Below, in pieces: positions 6,420 to 13,848 of a stretch of 64,000 nucleotides of DNA. The stretch is taken from assembly GCA_966211705.1 (NCBI GenBank), contig CBIHOC010000016.1, positions 44,081-108,080 on the forward strand. Reading direction: 5' to 3'. The stretch is from an uncultured Chryseobacterium sp. Lineage in GTDB: Bacteria; Bacteroidota; Bacteroidia; Palsa-965. How positions within the stretch are numbered: the stretch's first letter is position 1; each line of letters opens with the position of its first letter. The position numbers and the translations under genes are program-made. The notes below the pieces were generated by a model. It saw nothing but the letters and a program-made list of their open reading frames with translations, was not told the DNA's origin and ran no database searches.

Positions 6420-6845
6420 ATGAAAAAATTACTCCTGCTTGTTTTACCCGTTGCGCTCGTCTTCCCTGCGTGCGATAAATACGAAGACGGCCCGGCGCTG
6501 AGCCTGCTCACCAAAAAAGAACGCCTCTGCAATACGTGGATCATCCACTCCGCGTACAAGAACGACGTCGACCAGACGTCCGACTTCAACGCTGCGTTTG
6601 CCGGCTACACGCTCAACATCAAGAAAGACGAGACGTACACGCTCAGCTATCGCCCGTTCAACATTTCCGATTACAGCGAAAGCGGGACATGGAACTTCAA
6701 CGATAAAAAAACCACCGTCACGTTCAACAAGTCCGGTTCTTCGGATGCGACAACCTGGACCATTCTCCGCTTAAAACAAAAAGAGCTTTGGGCGGAATAC
6801 ACGGACAACGGCGACGTTTACGAAGTTCACCTTGTAGAAAAATAA
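6420..6845 (+). CDS. Lipoprotein, lipocalin-like beta-barrel
   Basis: Lipobox FPAC, then DKYEDGP...NTW and GTWNF motifs. Start at MKKLLL. Confidence 0.75.
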   Translation: MKKLLLLVLPVALVFPACDKYEDGPALSLLTKKERLCNTWIIHSAYKNDVDQTSDFNAAFAGYTLNIKKDETYTLSYRPFNISDYSESGTWNFNDKKTTVTFNKSGSSDATTWTILRLKQKELWAEYTDNGDVYEVHLVEK

Positions 6846-7045: not shown

Positions 7046-7675
7046 ATGATGATCGTCCCCGCCCTCCGACCCGCCCGCCCGAAGCTGCTGCCGCTCGGGT
7101 TCATTCTCGCCGGTTTTATGCCGGTTTCGTCGATTGCGCTGCATTGCATCGGCGTTCTTCCGCTGCAGCTTTGCCTGTTTTTCCTCGTCGTGCCGATGTT
7201 CGCGGGCATGTTCCTGCTGGGCATGCTCGAGCCGGGCATGACGCGCGTGGCAGCACGCGGGTGGGTGGCCGGTGTGATCGCTGTCGCGCTGTACGATTGC
7301 TCGCGCCTGCCGTTCATGCTCTACGGCTGGGGCGATTTCATCCCGAAGATCGGCGCGTGGCTGCTCGACACGGAACATCCCGGTGCGTGGGTCGGTTATG
7401 CGTGGCGCTACATCGGTAACGGCGGCGGGCTCGGCGTGGCATTTTTCATGCTGCTCAAAGTGACCGGCTTCAACCGCAATTTCATCCGTGCGGGGATTGA
7501 ATTCGGCCTGTTCGTGTTCCTTTGCCTGGTGATCCTGCTCTGCGTGTTCAAAGAAGCGCAGGACATGATGTTCCGCATCACTTCGCTCACGTTTGCAGGC
7601 AGCCTGACCGGCCACGTCATTTACGGCGTTACGCTCGGCTTCATGGCGCGCCGGTTTTTCGCCCCGCGGAAATAA
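7046..7675 (+). CDS. Hypothetical integral membrane protein
   Basis: 209 aa with about 5-6 hydrophobic helices and host-like codon usage. Confidence 0.7.
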   Translation: MMIVPALRPARPKLLPLGFILAGFMPVSSIALHCIGVLPLQLCLFFLVVPMFAGMFLLGMLEPGMTRVAARGWVAGVIAVALYDCSRLPFMLYGWGDFIPKIGAWLLDTEHPGAWVGYAWRYIGNGGGLGVAFFMLLKVTGFNRNFIRAGIEFGLFVFLCLVILLCVFKEAQDMMFRITSLTFAGSLTGHVIYGVTLGFMARRFFAPRK

Positions 7676-7788
7676 AAGAAACGGAATTTCCTCCGCACAT
7701 AAGGCGCACGCACGACAACATTGCCGTACACGCACACCGGCGCATTTCCGAAAAGAATGAATTTGTTGTAAGTGTTGTAACGTTTCAT
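7621..7788 (-). CDS. Putative 55-aa basic microprotein (MKRYNTYNKFILFGNAP...)
   Basis: ATG preceded by AGGAGG at a 6-nt spacer. Overlaps the 3' end of the convergent gene by 55 nt. Confidence 0.4.
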   Translation of the reverse strand: MKRYNTYNKFILFGNAPVCVYGNVVVRAPYVRRKFRFFYFRGAKNRRAMKPSVTP

Positions 7789-7817
7789 GGTGAACCTCCT
7801 TTGTGTATTACGTGGCG

Positions 7818-7967
7818 TCAGATGCTTGCATCTGACGCTGTAAGTACGGCCGGGCGATCACAGTCTCCTGTGTCGCCCGGCCCGTCTTCCGGCGGGGTTT
7901 CCACCACGTTGCCGATCGTTGCGCGGCAGGCGGCGATAACCCTTGCTTTTGCCCTGTAAGCTTTCAT
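7818..7967 (-). CDS. Putative 49-aa microprotein (MKAYRAKARVIAAC...)
   Basis: AAAGGAG 6 nt upstream, and an ATGA overlap with the stop of the 47-aa ORF. Confidence 0.5.
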   Translation of the reverse strand: MKAYRAKARVIAACRATIGNVVETPPEDGPGDTGDCDRPAVLTASDASI

Positions 7968-8107
7968 GGCTTGCTCCTTTCTTTTTTATAGGTTAATGCT
8001 TCGTCCGCCTGGCGTTTTGCAGCCTTGCATGCTTTGATGCCCCACATAACAAGGTGGATGTTGAAGAGCAAAATTTTCAATACAACAAGGACAGCTGCGA
8101 GCATCAT
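7964..8107 (-). CDS. Putative 47-aa single-TM microprotein (MMLAAVLVVLKILLF...KKERSKP)
   Basis: Hydrophobic N-half, basic tail, A-rich initiation region, coupled to the next ORF. Confidence 0.55.
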   Translation of the reverse strand: MMLAAVLVVLKILLFNIHLVMWGIKACKAAKRQADEALTYKKERSKP

Positions 8108-8133
8108 GGTGAATCGTTTTTATGCGATGGTTG

Positions 8134-8214
8134 TTACCGCTCTTTCTTTTCCGAAATAAGCGCGATGATCTTTATGACCAGCACCAGCAGGTGAATGATG
8201 ATGTGCGTTTCCAT
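8134..8214 (-). CDS. Putative 26-aa hydrophobic peptide (METHIIIHLLVLVIKIIALISEKKER)
   Basis: One TM-length helix plus a charged tail. AAAACGAT upstream is shared with the 47-aa ORF. Confidence 0.5.
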   Translation of the reverse strand: METHIIIHLLVLVIKIIALISEKKER

Positions 8215-8253
8215 AGCGGATCGTTTTAAAAATTTGCGATCCGCGGACGGATC

Positions 8254-8322
8254 TTATTTGTTTTTCATGGGCCGGAGTAGTGCTACCAGCAATACCGCCA
8301 GCAGGAGGAGATTGATGTTCAT
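8254..8322 (-). CDS. Putative 22-aa hydrophobic peptide (MNINLLLLAVLLVALLRPMKNK)
   Basis: First ORF after the terminator, with CCAAAACAAAAAC A-rich initiation context. Confidence 0.5.
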   Translation of the reverse strand: MNINLLLLAVLLVALLRPMKNK

Positions 8323-8342
8323 GTTTTTGTTTTGGCAGCGGC

Positions 8343-8378
8343 AATAAAAAACCCGGTGCTGAAAAGACAGGACCGGGT
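8343..8378 (-). terminator. Intrinsic terminator/attenuator 2
   Basis: ACCCGGT-14 nt-ACCGGGT followed by TTTTTATT on the minus strand. Confidence 0.8.
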
Positions 8379-8399
8379 CAGTGTGACGTGTGTGCTACG

Positions 8400-8528
8400 T
8401 CATTCATGATACGGTCGCGGTCTTGTAAAGACTGTCGTGGTGATCACATTCCGAATGGACATGTGTTTCCCGTGACAGCTTTCGTTACTGAGTTTGTTTT
8501 GCAGCAGCATGTTGTTGCAGTTGTTCAT
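8400..8528 (-). CDS. Putative leader peptide 2 (42 aa, MNNCNNMLLQ...FTRPRPYHE)
   Basis: ATG directly after the U-tract of terminator 1; the stop is about 20 nt before terminator 2. Confidence 0.5.
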   Translation of the reverse strand: MNNCNNMLLQNKLSNESCHGKHMSIRNVITTTVFTRPRPYHE

Positions 8529-8530
8529 GT

Positions 8531-8563
8531 AAACAAAACACCCGGCGTTTTCGGCGCCGGGTG
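8531..8563 (-). terminator. Intrinsic terminator/attenuator 1
   Basis: CACCCGGCG-7 nt-CGCCGGGTG perfect 9-bp stem followed by TTTTGTTT. Confidence 0.85.
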
Positions 8564-8590
8564 CGTGTAATGCTTTTATGGTAAAGCGCG

Positions 8591-8680
8591 TTACAACATA
8601 CACCAGCGGCTGCCGGGAGCGTCGACGAGGAAGCGGGCTTCCAGGCCTTTGCTTGTTTGATATGTGGTAATGTTGCGCAT
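8591..8680 (-). CDS. Putative leader peptide 1 (29 aa, MRNITTYQ...GSRWCML)
   Basis: First ORF after the promoter, with CAAAAAAACCAA before the ATG; ends 27 nt before terminator 1. Confidence 0.5.
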   Translation of the reverse strand: MRNITTYQTSKGLEARFLVDAPGSRWCML

Positions 8681-8701
8681 TTGGTTTTTTTGTTTGGGTG
8701 G

Positions 8702-8733
8702 CAAATATAGGTTTATGGAAAGATGTTTGTCAA
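8702..8733 (-). promoter_or_regulatory. Bacteroidota primary-sigma promoter
   Basis: TTG-21 nt-TATATTTG on the minus strand, matching the -33/-7 consensus. Confidence 0.7.
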
Positions 8734-8765
8734 GTGTTTCTGAAAATAAATTTCAGACGCACTTA

Positions 8766-8928
8766 GAGGCTGTTTAAGAATCATTTTTTGAAATTCTTAT
8801 GCGTCTTTTTGCGCCACACTTCGTTGCTTTTTTGACCAGATTCTCTCCGATATGGCCTGCAAAAAGCGCCTCGTCTGGCACAAAAATCCGCTTATAATAA
8901 TTTCAAAATCTAATTCTTAAACAGCCTC
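8766..8928. mobile_element. 163-bp MITE-like element
   Basis: Perfect 16-bp terminal inverted repeat GAGGCTGTTTAAGAAT, a further TTTTGAAATT match inside, TTA on both flanks, no ORF. Confidence 0.75.
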
Positions 8929-8985
8929 TTAAAACTGCATGCGAAGTGGCTGCATGCTGTACCGGGTAAAAAGCAAGAAGGAAAT

Positions 8986-9576
8986 TTATTTCACCACGAT
9001 CTGCTTCGCGTAGAGCTCTTGCTCCGAACAGCCGACGATCGTATAAATGCCGCGGCTGAGCAGCGGGTCCGGGTTGTTGCACTGGATCGGGTCGCCGGCG
9101 GCGTCCACTTCCACTTTGGAATAGAATTCATCGCCTCCCGCGCTGCGTACGATGATGAGCACCGATTTATCGCGGAAGCCGTTGGTATTCGCCTGGGAAG
9201 GAACGGGCGAGATGGGGTTTCCGCCGCCGTCGTATTTCACCGGCACAACGTTCGAATAGCTGATGTTGCCGTTCGCATCGGTAAGCTTCAGGCGATACCA
9301 GGAAAGGCCTTCGTAAGGCATGAAGTCGGTTTCGATAAATTCCATGTTCGCATCAGCGCCCTGCACTTTCCCGAACGCAGTGAACTCGGAACCGTTCTTC
9401 GATTTCTCCAGCTCGTACAGTTGAACGCCGGGCTGTTCCGGGTTCCAGGAAAGTAAAACCTGCTTGTCGCGCGCAACCGCATTGAACGAAGTCAGCGTGA
9501 TGGAGGAGGCCGGCTCTTGCGCGGTGAGCGGCAGTGCGAGGGAACAGGCGAGCGCGAAAGAGAGAAGAATACGCAT
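8986..9576 (-). CDS. Secreted protein with an Fn3/Ig-like domain
   Basis: Signal peptide, then ITLTSFNA...VLLSWN...YELEKS...YRLK...YSNVV. Promoter box TAGCTTTG at 9603-9610. Confidence 0.72.
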   Translation of the reverse strand: MRILLSFALACSLALPLTAQEPASSITLTSFNAVARDKQVLLSWNPEQPGVQLYELEKSKNGSEFTAFGKVQGADANMEFIETDFMPYEGLSWYRLKLTDANGNISYSNVVPVKYDGGGNPISPVPSQANTNGFRDKSVLIIVRSAGGDEFYSKVEVDAAGDPIQCNNPDPLLSRGIYTIVGCSEQELYAKQIVVK

Positions 9577-9700
9577 GGGAGATTGATTATCAGGATGCTT
9601 AACAAAGCTAGTGAAAGCCGGATGCCACGCAAGTTTCGGTCAGCCCATTTTTTAACAGGAACGGCCGGCAACCAGGTGAAAAGCAAGACCAAAAGACATT

Positions 9701-9732
9701 TTTATCGACGAGCAATCGATTTTTGTCGACCA
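9701..9732 (+). promoter_or_regulatory. Direct repeat with 21-bp period (LytTR-like operator)
   Basis: TTTATCGAC at 9701 and TTTGTCGAC at 9722. A 15/16 match to 9701-9716 occurs at 27748. Confidence 0.4.
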
Positions 9733-9775
9733 ATGCATTTATTCGTATGTCCGTAACTGTTGAAAATCAATCGGA

Positions 9776-9851
9776 GGTAGTAGGACTTAGGTTTTAGGAC
9801 TTAGGAATTAGGAAGGGAGCCCGCACGACCTAAGTCCTAAGACCTAACACC
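9776..9851. repeat. TTAGG(AC/TC/TT) heptamer palindromic element (family 3)
   Basis: TAGGACTTAGGTTTTAGGACTTAGG...CCTAAGTCCTAAGACCTAACACC. Second copy at 21302. Confidence 0.85.
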
Positions 9852-9969
9852 TTCTTCCCGTTGAGAAATAATTCCTCCTTGTCCGCGTTATAATAAAGCC
9901 TCCGGGCACGGTTTATGCTTATCAATCTTTAACATGGACTTCTGCCCTTAAGGACGTAAATTTATAATC

Positions 9970-10845
9970 ATGACCCGCCGCCGCTACGTTTTCCTTATCG
10001 CCTTATTGATCATCGCCATTGTGCTTCCCGGCTGCCTGCACGACTTCCTGCTTTCCGACAGCAAGGTGGAGACGCATTACAGCAAAAAGCCCCGCAAGCC
10101 GAAGTTCCGCTTGTTCGAAGGAAAAAATGGCCGTCACGTTCACTACGCCGAAACCGGCTCCGACACGCTTCCCCTGGTCTTTTTTATCCATGGTGCGCCC
10201 GGTGCATGGCATTATTACATCAATTACCTTGACGACAGCACGCTGCTCACCCGCACGCACATGATTTCCGTCGATCGCCCGGGCTATGGCAAATCCGATT
10301 ACGGGAAACCCCTGACCAGCATCCGCGAGCAGGCGAGAATGTTCCACAACATCATCATGGAACGCAGCAACAACCAGCCGGTCATCCTCGTCGGAAGATC
10401 CTACGGCGGACCGATCGCAGCACGCATCGCCATGGATTATCCCCGCGACGTGGATGCGCTGGTCATGCTCGCACCCGCCCTCGATCCCGAGAAGGAAAAA
10501 TTCTGGTGGTTCAGCAAGCCCGCGAAGAGCACGATCGTGTCGTGGATGCTGCCGGATGCCGTCAACGTCGCCTCCGAAGAAAAATTTTCACACGTCAGAG
10601 AGCTGGAGGAAATGCTTCCGCTCTGGGACAGCATCTGTGTTCCTTCCACCGTAGTGCAGGGCAGCGCAGACCAGATCGTCGACACAGCGAATTTTTCTTT
10701 CGCAAAACGCAAGCTCCGCAACGCACGCAGCAAAAAATTCATCATGATCGAAGGGGCGGATCACTACATCTCCGATAAGCAGCCCGCCCTGGTCAGGGAG
10801 ATCATCATGGGCTACGCCGACTCACTGTACAGGCAGCCGCGTTAA
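9970..10845 (+). CDS. Alpha/beta hydrolase
   Basis: FIHGAPG oxyanion motif, GRSYGG nucleophile elbow, GSAD and ADHYI catalytic Asp/His. Confidence 0.88.
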   Translation: MTRRRYVFLIALLIIAIVLPGCLHDFLLSDSKVETHYSKKPRKPKFRLFEGKNGRHVHYAETGSDTLPLVFFIHGAPGAWHYYINYLDDSTLLTRTHMISVDRPGYGKSDYGKPLTSIREQARMFHNIIMERSNNQPVILVGRSYGGPIAARIAMDYPRDVDALVMLAPALDPEKEKFWWFSKPAKSTIVSWMLPDAVNVASEEKFSHVRELEEMLPLWDSICVPSTVVQGSADQIVDTANFSFAKRKLRNARSKKFIMIEGADHYISDKQPALVREIIMGYADSLYRQPR

Positions 10846-10905
10846 TTCCACGTGAAAATCACGCCCGGCTTCACGGCTGAAGCGTTTCCATCCTACCTTT
10901 GCCGC

Positions 10906-11901
10906 ATGCACAACAGGCTGATCTTTTCGCTGCTCTTTTTCTTTTCGTTTTCCGTTGCATACGCCGGCAAAGGCCAGCCCCCGGCCCGCATCGCGTTCTG
11001 GAACGTCGAAAACCTGTTCGACACGATCAACGATCCGAACATCAACGACGAAGAATTTCTGCCGGGCGGAAAAAAGAAATGGACGTCGGAACGCTACACG
11101 AAAAAGCTGGACGATCTTTCGAAAGTCATTCTCGCGCTTGGCGCCGGCGGGAAAGGACCCGACGTTCTCGGCATGGCGGAAGTGGAGAACAAGAACGTGC
11201 TCTCCGATCTCACACAGAAAACCGATCTGAAGAAGCAAGGCTACGGCATTGTCCATTACGATTCGCCGGACAAGCGCGGGATCGACGTGGCGATGATCTA
11301 TAAAATGAAAACGTTCAAAGTGCTCGGTTCGCAGACGATCAACGTTTCCGTTCCGCAGGATACGTTTTACACGCGCGACATCCTGCTGGTGAAAGGCGTG
11401 CTGGGGAAGAAGGACACGCTGTTCATTTTCGTCAACCACTGGCCTTCGCGCCGCGGCGGGCAGGAAGCGAGCGAAAACAAACGCATGCTGGCCGCCCGCA
11501 GCCTCATGCGCGCGTGCGACAGCATCTACGCCATCAACCCCAACGCGCAAGTGCTGGTCATGGGCGACTTCAACGACGAGCCTGTGAACAAGAGTATGCG
11601 CTACCTGTGTGAAAGTACCGGCTTCTTCAACCTGATGGACACATTGAAAGCGGCAGGCGAAGGTTCGTACCAATACAAAAAAGAACGCAACCTGCTCGAC
11701 CAGGTGCTGGTCACGCAAAGCCTGAGATCGAAAACGGGTTATTACGTCACACAGGCCGTCATCTTTAAACCGGAATGGATCACCGGCGTAAACTACAAAA
11801 ACGATCCGCCCGGGCCGTTGCATACGTATGCAGGCTCGCATTACATCGGCGGCTACAGCGATCATTACCCGGTGTACGCGGAGCTGGGGTTTGCAAAGTA
11901 A
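10906..11901 (+). CDS. Exported endonuclease/exonuclease/phosphatase family protein
   Basis: Signal peptide, WNVENLFD, NHWPSR, GDFND, DQVL and SDHYPV motifs. Start set at ATG 10906. Confidence 0.87.
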   Translation: MHNRLIFSLLFFFSFSVAYAGKGQPPARIAFWNVENLFDTINDPNINDEEFLPGGKKKWTSERYTKKLDDLSKVILALGAGGKGPDVLGMAEVENKNVLSDLTQKTDLKKQGYGIVHYDSPDKRGIDVAMIYKMKTFKVLGSQTINVSVPQDTFYTRDILLVKGVLGKKDTLFIFVNHWPSRRGGQEASENKRMLAARSLMRACDSIYAINPNAQVLVMGDFNDEPVNKSMRYLCESTGFFNLMDTLKAAGEGSYQYKKERNLLDQVLVTQSLRSKTGYYVTQAVIFKPEWITGVNYKNDPPGPLHTYAGSHYIGGYSDHYPVYAELGFAK

Positions 11902-11907
11902 GAGCGG

Positions 11908-13848
11908 ATGAGCAATTCCAGAGCTGAGCTTCGCCGTCTTGTCGATCTTCTCGCCATCGAGAAGGATGAAGACTACCGTCAATACGTTGCGCAATTCGAA
12001 CGTTGCAGCGTTACCGAACGCCGCAGGAACGGCGTGACGTGGTATCCCGTAAAGATCACGTCGGAAGAATTGGGCCCCGGCGACAACCTTATTATCGAGC
12101 TCGAACGCACGCAGGGATTGAGCGAGCTGCACCAGTTCGGCGGCGGAAAAAACATCGAGCTGTTCAGCAACTCCGGCGAAAAAGGCAGCGAGGGATGGAA
12201 ATTCCAGGGCACGATCAAGAACGTTTGGGGCAACCGCATGCGCATTTCTTTCAGCACCGACGAGCTTCCGGGCTGGGTGGAACGCGGGAAGATCGGTCTG
12301 AATTTGTTGTTCGACGAGAACAGCTATCGTGAAATGCTGATCGCGCTGCAAAAGGTGATCGACGCCGAACGCGGCCGCCTCGCGGAATTGCGGGAAGTGA
12401 TGTACGGCGAACGGAAAGCCGCATTCGGGAAGATCGATGAAAGCATTTCCATGCCGGGCCTGAACAAATTCCAGAACGACGCCGTGAAACGCATTGCCGC
12501 TGCGGAGGATGTTGCGCTGGTGCATGGACCGCCGGGCACAGGCAAAACAACGACGTTCATCCAGGCCATCCGCCACACGCTGCTGCACGAGAAACAGGTG
12601 CTCGTGTGCAGCCCGAGCAACATCGCCGTCGACCTGCTTACGGAGCGGCTGGTGCGGCAGGGTGTGTCGGTGCTGCGCCTCGGCAATCCAGCGCGCGTGT
12701 CCGAAGAGGTGATCAACAATACGCTCGACGTGCGAATGATGAATCATTCTTCGTACAAAGAATTGAAAGAGTACCGCAAGCGCGCCGAAGAATTTTTTGC
12801 GCTGGCGAAAAAATACAAACGCAGCTTCGGGTATGCCGAACGTGAACAGCGCAACCTGCTTTTCCAGGAAGCCCGGCAATTGCTGCGCGATGCGTCGACG
12901 CTCGAAGATTATATTCTGTGGGAGCAGTTCGATACCGCGCAGGTGATCGCCTGCACGCCGGTCGTTTCCTCCGGGAAGCTGATGCGCGACAAGCGTTTCC
13001 GCACCGTGTTCATCGACGAAGCCGCGCAAGCCCTCGAGCCGATGAGCTGGATCCCCATTTCGCGGGCCGAGCGGGTGATCCTCGCCGGCGACCATTGCCA
13101 GCTTCCGCCGACGGTGAAATCGAAAAAGGCGGAAGATGGCGGGTTGAAGTTCACGCTGTTCGAGCGCGTCGTAAAAACGCAGCCGCACGCAGCCGTGATG
13201 CTGCGCACGCAATACCGCATGCACGAGCAGATCATGCAATTCTCCAACCGCATGTTCTACGAAGGCAAGCTCGAAGCCGACGCCACGGTGGTCGACAGCC
13301 GCCTCAGCTACGACGAGCTCGACGATCTTTTGGTGAAGCCGGTAGAATTCATCGACACGGCCGGTTGCGGTTTTACCGAAGAGCAGAATCCCGAAACGCT
13401 CAGCATGAGCAATAAAGAAGAGGCCGAGCTGCTGCTGAAGCATTTGAGAAAAGTGATCGCGCAATACGACCGCCGTCCCGACGAGCCGCTGCGCATCGGC
13501 ATCATCGCGCCGTACAAACAGCAGACAGAATATTTAACGCAGCGTCTCCTGGAGCAGGAGTATTTCAAAGATTCCCCGCATCATTTTTCCGTCCGCACCG
13601 TCGACGGTTTCCAGGGGCAGGAGCGCGACATCATCTGCATCAGCCTGGTGCGCAGCAACGACAGCGGGGAGATCGGTTTCCTTGCCGACACGCGGCGGAT
13701 GAACGTAGCGCTGACGCGCGCGAAGCGAAAGCTGCTCGTGTTCGGCGACAGCGCGACGCTGGCGAACCATTCGTTCTACAAAACGTTCCTGGAATACATC
13801 GACGAGATCGGTGCGTACCGCAGCGCGTGGGAGTTTATGGCGGAGTGA
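11908..13848 (+). CDS. SF1 helicase, DNA2/NAM7 (IGHMBP2-like)
   Basis: HGPPGTGKT, IDEAAQ, GDHCQLPP, QYRM, TVDGFQGQE and RRMNVALTRAK motifs. Confidence 0.9.
   Translation: MSNSRAELRRLVDLLAIEKDEDYRQYVAQFERCSVTERRRNGVTWYPVKITSEELGPGDNLIIELERTQGLSELHQFGGGKNIELFSNSGEKGSEGWKFQGTIKNVWGNRMRISFSTDELPGWVERGKIGLNLLFDENSYREMLIALQKVIDAERGRLAELREVMYGERKAAFGKIDESISMPGLNKFQNDAVKRIAAAEDVALVHGPPGTGKTTTFIQAIRHTLLHEKQVLVCSPSNIAVDLLTERLVRQGVSVLRLGNPARVSEEVINNTLDVRMMNHSSYKELKEYRKRAEEFFALAKKYKRSFGYAEREQRNLLFQEARQLLRDASTLEDYILWEQFDTAQVIACTPVVSSGKLMRDKRFRTVFIDEAAQALEPMSWIPISRAERVILAGDHCQLPPTVKSKKAEDGGLKFTLFERVVKTQPHAAVMLRTQYRMHEQIMQFSNRMFYEGKLEADATVVDSRLSYDELDDLLVKPVEFIDTAGCGFTEEQNPETLSMSNKEEAELLLKHLRKVIAQYDRRPDEPLRIGIIAPYKQQTEYLTQRLLEQEYFKDSPHHFSVRTVDGFQGQERDIICISLVRSNDSGEIGFLADTRRMNVALTRAKRKLLVFGDSATLANHSFYKTFLEYIDEIGAYRSAWEFMAE

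Follow-up and report, generated by a model that had tools for sequence, protein, structure and literature searches.

The 64,000-nt stretch of DNA analyzed here (the window; contig CBIHOC010000016.1, positions 44,081 to 108,080) comes from an uncultured soil Bacteroidia bacterium and carries on its minus strand a stretch of ~1.3 kb without a long open reading frame (ORF). Comparison with related loci indicates that the promoter-proximal part of this stretch (8733-8343) is a real, conserved, and hitherto unannotated leader that is confined to a narrow clade. We read it, with a probability of roughly 55%, as the 5' leader of a small operon in which two ribosome-dependent transcription attenuators would be arranged in series, each made up of a short leader ORF (ORF1, ORF2) and an intrinsic terminator (T1, T2). 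All the evidence is comparative and thermodynamic. A preliminary description, made from the letters of the window, had proposed two translation-coupled attenuators in series that perhaps sense particular amino acids; the general idea is supported by our analysis, the named inputs are not.

Relatives of the leader were gathered as homologues of the gene that flanks it upstream, which encodes an FN3-like protein, and of SpB, one of the small proteins encoded downstream, and the genomic contexts were then compared. In addition to the window there are 13 distinct loci with the same arrangement (14 distinct loci in total), and the relatives all stem from metagenome-assembled genomes listed as ‘Bacteroidia bacterium’ or ‘Bacteroidota bacterium’. 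Subgroup A consists of the window, L005, L018 (identical to L019), L020, L022, and L052; subgroup B of L006 (identical to L050), L010, L013, L047, L049, and L051; L015 and L008 are outliers, and L001 and L002 represent the same strain as the window (99.9% identical). The FN3-like flanking protein is merely 36-67% identical across the 14 loci, which are thus far apart in evolution. Because the sample amounts to roughly four lineages, with several closely related loci inside a subgroup, its power for detecting covariation is low. The layout with two modules is found in 12 of the 14 loci, and one module is carried by L013 (module 1 alone, with SpB directly after it) and by L008; the modules therefore can occur single or stacked.

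The promoter that the preliminary description had placed ahead of the leader, of the form TTG-N21, is indeed present at 8733-8702 (minus strand), with TTGACA at 8733 and, 21 nt after the TTG, TATATTTG at 8709-8702. It is of the Bacteroidota primary-sigma type, TTG/TAnnTTTG being the consensus described for the Bacteroidetes primary sigma factor (PMC7366714). A TTG-N19-23-TAnnTTTG motif lies 25-29 nt before the ATG of ORF1 in 12 loci and 43 nt before it in two. When the 14 loci were scanned as far as the last small gene, including its end, no second TAnnTTTG was found in nearly every locus, the exceptions being L018 (one unpaired motif, upstream of the real promoter) and L008 (one near the end of SpA). 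Since an internal promoter motif is missing, expression of the downstream genes seems to require read-through of both T1 and T2.

Both terminators had been pointed out as a hairpin with a U-tract, and both are recovered. T1 (8564-8529, minus) has a stem of 10 bp, 8 of them G-C, at 8564-8538 (-19.5 kcal/mol), followed by the tail UUUUGUUUAC to 8529, which is an interrupted U tract (UUUUGUUU); across the relatives 97% of the alignment cells are paired, with compensatory changes in 3 pairs. T2 (8379-8343, minus) has a stem at 8379-8351 with one bulged C (-15.8 kcal/mol) and the tail UUUUUUAUU ending at 8343. It was missed by a simple terminator scan because of the mismatch inside its stem, and is borne out by RNAfold and by 11 relatives; in 12 loci the lower 8 bp hardly vary, and the upper stem contains 2 compensatory pairs. 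By their form and conservation T1 and T2 are predicted intrinsic terminators placed between the leader ORFs and the downstream genes. Two smaller hairpins precede T1. P1 (8642-8629, minus) is situated inside ORF1 and reads GGAAG-cccg-CUUCC in the window; its helix (alignment columns 41-49/60-68) has compensatory changes in 5 of 8 pairs and 87.5% of cells paired, for example CUGCAG/CUGUAG to CUGCAA/UUGUAG, or GGA/UCC to GGG/CCC in L051, where the residues change from SFP to ESL. By analogy with the trp leader, P1 may be an RNA polymerase pause hairpin that synchronizes ribosome and polymerase. P2 (8587-8572, minus; GCUUU-accaua-AAAGC) lies between the ORF1 stop and T1; in the relatives it is AUGCG/CGCAU or AUGCU/AGCAU, with one pair going from G-C to U-A, and the window stem has a wholly different sequence. 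RNAalifold recovered the hairpin inside ORF1 (P1) and T1. On an alignment of 12 sequences P1, P2, and T1 together have 91.4% of their cells paired, both partners have changed in 9 pairs, and not one of 500 shuffles scored as high for covariation; in controls with the partners slid by 1-3 columns about 40% of the cells were paired. A further hairpin (UGACGU...ACGUCA, 8402-8384, minus), described earlier as overlapping the second stop, begins on the ORF2 stop codon, and a hairpin of different sequence is found at the ORF2 stop in the relatives too.

ORF1 (8680-8591, minus; 29 aa, MRNITTYQTSKGLEARFLVDAPGSRWCML, ending ...SRWCML) and ORF2 (8528-8400, minus; 42 aa, MNNCNNM...RPRPYHE), the latter with its ATG 10 nt past the T1 stem and thus right after the first terminator, correspond to the two leader ORFs of the preliminary description. 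ORF1 measures 27-32 aa in all 14 loci, and ORF2, with 37-55 aa, fills the interval between T1 and T2 in each of the 12 two-module loci. Compared with dinucleotide-preserving shuffles of the same intervals, in which an ATG-initiated ORF of the observed length was sought, the lengths have p values per locus of about 0.05-0.13 (ORF1) and 0.009-0.04 (ORF2). The interior of the ORFs is nearly randomized between lineages (column identity 0.44-0.52), and it follows from these two observations that the open frames have been kept several times independently, in at least 3-4 lineages. The 15 bases before the ATG are rich in A, the fraction of which averages 0.66 (ORF1) and 0.54 (ORF2), the background being 0.33, and reaches 12 of 15 bases for ORF1 of the window. 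An A-rich initiation context has been reported for Bacteroidetes, a phylum without Shine-Dalgarno sequences (PMC7366714). ORF1 and ORF2 presumably are translated. Codon periodicity gives no sign of purifying selection on their peptides, unlike SpA and SpB of the same loci: the ratio of third-position to first- and second-position differences is 1.1-1.4 for ORF1 and 1.05-1.3 for ORF2 (overall about 1.05-1.44), and the synonymous fraction is 0.15-0.24 for ORF1 and 0.11-0.24 for both ORFs together. A frameshift in L022 alters the C-terminus of ORF1 and moves its stop by 8 nt, and leaves the nucleotides GCCGGTGTAGGATGTAA identical to those of L005, so that the constraint at this place is on the RNA and not on the peptide. 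ORFs that are kept open without selection on the peptide suggest that the act of translation matters rather than the product, which is the signature of a regulatory leader ORF. Precursors of ribosomally synthesized and post-translationally modified peptides, or micro-proteins, were considered as an identity for ORF1 and ORF2 and set aside, as there is no selection at the peptide level and no modifying enzyme is conserved nearby.

In most loci the motif AAUGCGCAA occurs twice, once at the start codon of ORF1 and once across its stop (UAAUG), e.g., at 8664 and 8745 in L006 and at 6780 and 6861 in L013, where both copies read AAUGCUCAA; the window has the start copy only (8681-8673). The second copy forms the 5' arm of P2, and also opens a frame that runs through T1 in several loci; in L005 and L010 this frame shares an AUGA with the start of ORF2, and in L049 it is in phase with ORF2. 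A frame of the window that starts with GTG (8603-8400) crosses T1 as well and is again in phase with ORF2. The arrangement may reflect reinitiation, a binding site, or chance. The UAAUG frame through T1 is not relied on here, since it is missing in the window and its frame is inconsistent between loci. A long-range UGCGCA:UGCGCA helix between the start codon and the post-stop region also was considered and set aside, the two sides not being complementary in L010, L013, L047, and L051.

The last codons of ORF1 contain the 5' strand of a first candidate antiterminator (CGGCAGCCGCUGGUGUAUGU, 8615-8596, minus), and ORF2 that of a second one (AAGACCGCGACCG, 8424-8412, minus). The complementarities claimed earlier exist in both leaders: GCCGCUGGUGU (8610-8600) pairs with GCACCCGGC, and GACCG, present twice in 8424-8412, pairs with CGGUC, each in the minimum-energy fold of the nascent RNA. 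In a folding test that left out the 3' arm of the terminator, mimicking the moment before the terminator can form, the terminator 5' arm was paired with the 3' end of the ORF in 13 of the 14 loci that have module 1 and in all 12 that have module 2. In module 1 of the window the strand pairs with the T1 5' arm through 15 bp and ends 2 nt before the stop. The core of module 1 is GCCGGUGU with ACACCCGGC in most of subgroup A, UUCUGCUGUGU with ACACCCGGCAGAG in subgroup B, and CGGCAGCCGCUGGUGU with GCACCCGGCGCCG in the window; that of module 2 is CAGAUCGG, CAGAACGG, or CGGACCG with CCGGUCUG or CCGGUCCG, the partner of the window strand in T2 being UGACCCGGUC. In most loci the 5' strand ends 0-4 nt from the stop of ORF1, or 4-11 nt from that of ORF2. 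A terminating ribosome covers roughly 15 nt upstream of its A site, and at these distances the antiterminator strands therefore fall inside its footprint. The terminator state is the more stable one, by 7-17 kcal/mol in module 1 and by 2-11 kcal/mol in module 2, which is the usual relation in kinetically controlled attenuators; in the window and L005 the full-length minimum-energy fold partly keeps the antiterminator 2 helix instead of T2.

On the alignment 83% of the cells of antiterminator 1 pair, versus 20-52% for slid controls, and its strand at the end of ORF1 is the most conserved stretch inside that ORF (column identity 0.77, against 0.44-0.52 for the interior). The other conserved columns are those of the start-codon region (0.89), the post-stop motif (0.85), and the T1 arms (0.84-0.90). 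The terminator arms and part of the loops are conserved far beyond what the formation of a hairpin alone needs. Near-invariant arms are to be expected if each arm must pair with two partners; the arms of a plain hairpin could drift. Covariation-like support for the antiterminators comes only from lineage-specific extensions of the pairing into the terminator loop (CGGC/GCCG in the window, UUCU/AGAG in subgroup B, and CUAA/UUAG in L020 and L052). The antiterminators thus are well-placed, conserved complementarities and not proven helices; we infer that they form.

How the two modules might work can be outlined from these elements. Transcription would start at the single promoter at 8733-8702. 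In each module a short ORF would be translated whose last codons can pair with the 5' arm of a terminator ~20-30 nt further on. A ribosome that has kept up with the polymerase and arrived at the last codons would mask the antiterminator strand, so that the terminator (T1, and then T2) forms and transcription stops; if the ribosome is late, stalled, or absent, the strand would capture the freshly made 5' arm and the polymerase would read through. A pause at P1 may serve to synchronize ribosome and polymerase. The cargo, in the window three hydrophobic micro-ORFs, SpA, and SpB, would be made only if both gates are passed; the AND gate inferred earlier is apt in this respect, as two terminators in series act as a logical AND for read-through. 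The response presumably would run from slow translation to read-through.

What the leader would respond to is a separate matter. The preliminary description had tentatively named Trp/Cys/Met for the first module and Asn/Thr or stalling at Arg-Pro for the second, and these residues prove to be specific to the window: in relatives ...SRWCML is replaced by ...CRCRM, ...HRCVM, or ...CCVS, MNNCNN by MKNRNN, MYQNFL, or MKTKTN, and RPRPYHE by SELRQR, ALHR, or PLLPYR. In addition, a ribosome stalled at the Cys codons would favor termination and not read-through, as these codons are part of the antiterminator strand. On the comparison of the leader peptides, the sensing of these amino acids is rejected. 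With no conserved codon run and with peptides that drift freely, the overall speed of translation is the most economical input, and by analogy with toiL and vmlR the signal probably would be general translation speed or stress and not any one amino acid.

Several observations weigh against this attenuation scheme. In neither antiterminator core did we find a compensatory double substitution, owing to the near invariance of the terminator 5' arms, and the UGU of the antiterminator strand did not follow the changes in the T1 arm of L020 and L052. P1, P2, and T1 covary in the relatives, and the case for the antiterminators is based on conserved complementarity. Compared with shuffles, the duplex between the arm and the upstream strand is marginal (p mostly 0.014-0.19 for module 1 and 0.05-0.45 for module 2), and in L008 it has a p of 0.83 and the minimum-energy fold contains no antiterminator; being weakly significant per locus, the duplex energies are not relied on here. 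An anti-antiterminator helix (of the 1:2 type), which would decide the fate of an untranslated leader, is weak and could not be substantiated. ORF2 of the window has a poor initiation context, with A at 1 of the 15 upstream bases. No codon run for any amino acid that would point to an input signal is conserved in ORF1 or ORF2 among the compared loci. Finally, the promoter scan covered the TAnnTTTG type, and other promoters, such as those of extracytoplasmic function (ECF) sigma factors, are possible downstream of T1 or T2.

The same observations can be arranged differently. If T1 and T2 were constitutively leaky terminators, ORF1 and ORF2 would be ordinary micro-protein genes and expression would follow a fixed gradient (ORF1 > ORF2 > rest) without any switching. 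This would agree with the conserved length and position of the ORFs, with the interrupted U tract of T1, which is typical of partial terminators, and with antiterminator cores that do not covary. We judge it unlikely: the leader peptides lack the purifying selection seen on SpA and SpB in the same loci, the frameshift in L022 is tolerated, the nucleotides best conserved in the ORFs belong to the strand that can pair with the terminator, and the arms, together with part of the loops, are over-conserved for plain hairpins. The leader might also yield trans-acting small RNAs (sRNAs), i.e., an RNA of ~165 nt from the promoter to T1 and perhaps a second one ending at T2, in which case the ORFs would be incidental or secondary and downstream expression would be due to read-through. 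That the frames stay open in every lineage in spite of their scrambled interior, that A-rich tracts precede both ATGs, and that the stop codons keep a fixed distance from the antiterminator strand and the terminator would then lack a reason; neither a second RNA nor the downstream genes have a promoter motif, and there is no match in Rfam. An own promoter together with an intrinsic terminator is a hallmark of Bacteroides intergenic sRNAs (PMC7366714), P1 covaries, and the T1 loop GAGCAAUU is conserved in one subgroup; on balance we hold sRNAs to be improbable as well.

Control by a bound factor or ligand, as in a riboswitch or in attenuation of the TRAP or PyrR type, would make translation irrelevant, with P1 or the repeated AAUGCGCAA as the binding site. 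The covariation of P1, which has no obvious coding role, may be read in this way, as may the occurrence of AAUGCGCAA at the ORF1 start and just past its stop with the shared change to AAUGCUCAA in both copies of L013. No loop or bulge sequence of P1, however, is shared between lineages in a way that would suggest a ligand pocket, the second motif copy is accounted for by P2, a covarying hairpin of which it forms the 5' arm, and the fact that both ORFs stay open would be left unexplained; we therefore regard this possibility as quite improbable.

Of particular interest with regard to what such a leader might control is the outlier locus L015 (region described: 7330-12435). Here the same two modules are situated 47 nt upstream of a gene for a 506-aa Ro60 homologue (TROVE 1.9e-29, vWA_Ro60 2.4e-07), while the leader is still directly downstream of the orthologous FN3-like gene. 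Downstream of Ro60 lies a YrlA-like RNA (10137-10247; 39.4 bits, E 2e-6, which does not reach the Rfam gathering score of 69); there are two weak tRNA-like matches (8908-8979 and 10028-10100), and 11 tRNA genes follow at 10381-12435. A Ro60 gene adjoins the leader in none of the other 13 loci. With the same leader placed before a different cargo, it behaves in L015 as a portable regulatory cassette. Ro60/Y-RNA systems act in RNA quality control (PMC4201824). A Ro60 cargo would fit an input of translation stress, which is suggestive only. Put more broadly, the leader could be a portable, clade-specific two-stage sensor of translation speed or stalling that has been placed before differing stress cargoes, mostly a membrane micro-protein operon and once a Ro60/YrlA-like system; we advance this wider reading tentatively and consider it rather doubtful. 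The proximity to a TROVE and vWA_Ro60 gene in L015, and a GGUC(C/U)GA motif with a bulged C in T2, raise the further question of whether the leader RNAs themselves are Y-RNA-like partners of Ro60. We give this almost no credence and have rejected a Y-RNA identity of the modules: they have no Y_RNA or YrlA match at E up to 10 (7600-9100 of the window) or, in a further search, up to 1, the YrlA-like RNA of L015 is located elsewhere, T2 is a local hairpin and not a stem closed by the 5' and 3' ends of the RNA, and Ro60 is not next to the leader in the other 13 loci.

The two-attenuator leader can be compared with several known systems. Classical amino-acid attenuators are those of trp, his, pheA, thr, leu, and ilv, with the ‘Bacteroid-trp’ leader of Rfam as a representative in the Bacteroidetes. 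The leader described here resembles the trp and his attenuators in its short leader ORF (predicted to be translated), the intrinsic terminator before the genes, a candidate antiterminator at the end of the ORF, by which the position of the ribosome would decide the fold, and a possible pause hairpin. It differs from them in that it has no amino-acid codon run, no cargo for biosynthesis or aminoacyl-tRNA, two complete modules in series, no demonstrable anti-antiterminator of the 1:2 type, and no match in Rfam, including Bacteroid-trp. The nearest precedent for the stacking is the mgtCBR leader of Salmonella, whose ORFs mgtM and mgtP are thought to control alternative stem-loops and thereby transcription into the coding region, mgtP having conserved Pro codons (proline limitation) and mgtM conserved adenines (ATP) (PMC3641672). 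Common to both are two short ORFs per leader with predicted alternative folds (in 12 loci here) and a small hydrophobic peptide in the operon (in Salmonella the regulatory peptide MgtR); in contrast to mgtCBR, our leader has no conserved Pro run or adenine sensing and no homology in sequence or cargo, belongs to another phylum, and ends each module in a canonical terminator of hairpin and U-tract. Leaders of the ermC type are antibiotic-sensing upstream ORFs (uORFs). The E. coli toiL-topAI (PMC12121999) and B. subtilis vmlR (PMC9226507) leaders also use uORFs, as sensors of translation stress or antibiotics. With toiL, vmlR, and ermC the present leader would share a uORF without codon runs, a non-biosynthetic cargo, and presumably the logic by which stalling remodels the RNA. 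It differs from them by its two gates and by having no recognized stalling motif or drug response; moreover, toiL acts by occlusion of the ribosome-binding site and Rho-dependent termination, whereas the terminators here are of the intrinsic type, and the cargo of vmlR and ermC consists of resistance factors, whereas here it is micro-proteins, or Ro60 in L015. No ABC-F protein, rRNA methylase, or toxin-antitoxin system was matched among the downstream genes, and the Ro60 of L015 is the sole stress-related cargo.

Ribosome-dependent attenuation is well established from textbooks. To our knowledge, nearly all the attenuators worked out so far govern genes for amino acids or resistance and were described in Proteobacteria, Firmicutes, and Actinobacteria; the coupling of transcription and translation is largely unexplored in the Bacteroidota, which have a promoter type of their own and initiate translation independently of Shine-Dalgarno sequences. 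What is new here is a conserved, unannotated family of leaders in the Bacteroidota with two gates and without recognizable sensing codons, ahead of cargo micro-proteins that are missed by standard annotation. If attenuation does take place, the coupling in Bacteroidota would have to be tight enough to permit it, and the leader would be a natural double-gated, and hence steeper or noise-filtered, switch for translation stress; it also would provide a handle on the function of the SpH, SpA, and SpB proteins and on the induction of a bacterial Ro60/Y-RNA operon. Should the portable-sensor reading hold, no uORF-based attenuator would have been described before for a Ro60 operon of bacteria, and the leader would be among the first mechanistically interpretable ribosome-dependent attenuators in Bacteroidota. 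Unless related leaders appear elsewhere, its general importance is limited by the narrowness of the family (~14 protein clusters in 5.8 billion).

The genes downstream of T2 all lie on the minus strand. They comprise two hydrophobic micro-ORFs, SpH1 (MNINLLLLAVLLVALLRPMKNK, 8322-8254) and SpH2 (METHIIIHLLVLVIKIIALISEKKER, 8214-8134), a hydrophobic small ORF of 47 aa, SpH3 (8107-7964), and two small proteins, SpA (49 aa, 7967-7818; MKAYRAK...C..(I/V)G.V.E(T/I)PP) and SpB (55 aa, 7788-7621; MK....YN(R/K)FILFGN.P.C.YGN). The earlier statement that no biosynthetic operon follows the leader is therefore correct. SpA and SpB are, by their coding signature, genuine conserved small proteins: the third-position ratio is 2.2-2.9 for SpA (residues 1-30) and about 2 for SpB (residues 1-27), with a synonymous fraction of 0.36-0.49. 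In subgroup B SpA has ~90 aa and a C-terminal membrane helix (L006, L010, L047, L049, and L051), and in subgroup A, where only the conserved N-terminal ~30 residues are kept, it has 32-49 aa; the short forms result either from loss of a domain or from decay. A homologue search with the single SpB sequence returned SpB itself alone, and the SpB family amounts to 14 clusters, all from this clade, among 5.8 billion database proteins. Neither SpA and SpB nor the hydrophobic micro-ORFs have a match in Pfam, NCBIfam, PADLOC, or PHROGs.

In most loci the interval from T2 to SpA contains 1-3 hydrophobic micro-ORFs of the type MH(I/V)ALLL.H..V.(I/L)(L/I)(K/R). SpH1 belongs to a family of hydrophobic ORFs of 20-34 aa found in this interval in most loci, SpH2 resembles the MHIALLLIHIIVILIR-type ORFs of L006, L010, L020, L047, L049, and L051, and SpH3 is called as a gene in metagenome assemblies and has no family match. 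The hydrophobic micro-ORFs as a whole (20-47 aa; in the window, L006, L008, L010, L020, L022, L047, L049, L051, and L052) each have one predicted membrane helix, often with two His, and then a basic tail, and several have a Shine-Dalgarno-like GGAGG, which is unusual for Bacteroidota. Their likeness to type I toxins or to small regulatory peptides of the membrane is one of form only. Directly after SpH1 a weak hairpin (GAUCCG-uccg-CGGAUC, 8253-8238, minus; -7.1 kcal/mol) is followed 5 nt on by UUUUU; it could be a third, weak terminator and is not conserved in the relatives.

Searches for further members or for known RNAs added little. A metagenome scan with the SpB alignment confirmed one short locus, L017, a fragment resembling L005, and scans of viral contigs with the T1 and T2 patterns gave 24 loci, all of them unrelated terminator-like hairpins. 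Rfam had no match at gathering score on the whole window, chance-level matches only on 7600-9100 at E up to 10, and none on the modules of nine relatives; a tRNA and tmRNA scan of the window was negative. The leader and its genes are flanked by the FN3-like gene upstream (9576-8986, minus; a secreted protein of 196 aa) and by a convergent gene for a 209-aa membrane protein downstream (7046-7675, plus), for neither of which Pfam, NCBIfam, PADLOC, or PHROGs gave a credible match; a type IX secretion tail is found on a neighboring gene.

In the gap that separates the FN3-like stop codon from the promoter of the leader, the window contains an inverted repeat that folds into a near-perfect hairpin of ~165 nt (8765-8929, on both strands; -78.8 kcal/mol, z = -11.8). 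It is present as a single copy in the window and is missing from this position in L005, L018, and the others. A copy that is 84% identical over 117 bp occurs at 1800-1915 of L015, in an intergenic region between convergent genes, and the element looks like a palindromic mobile repeat similar to miniature inverted-repeat transposable elements (MITEs).

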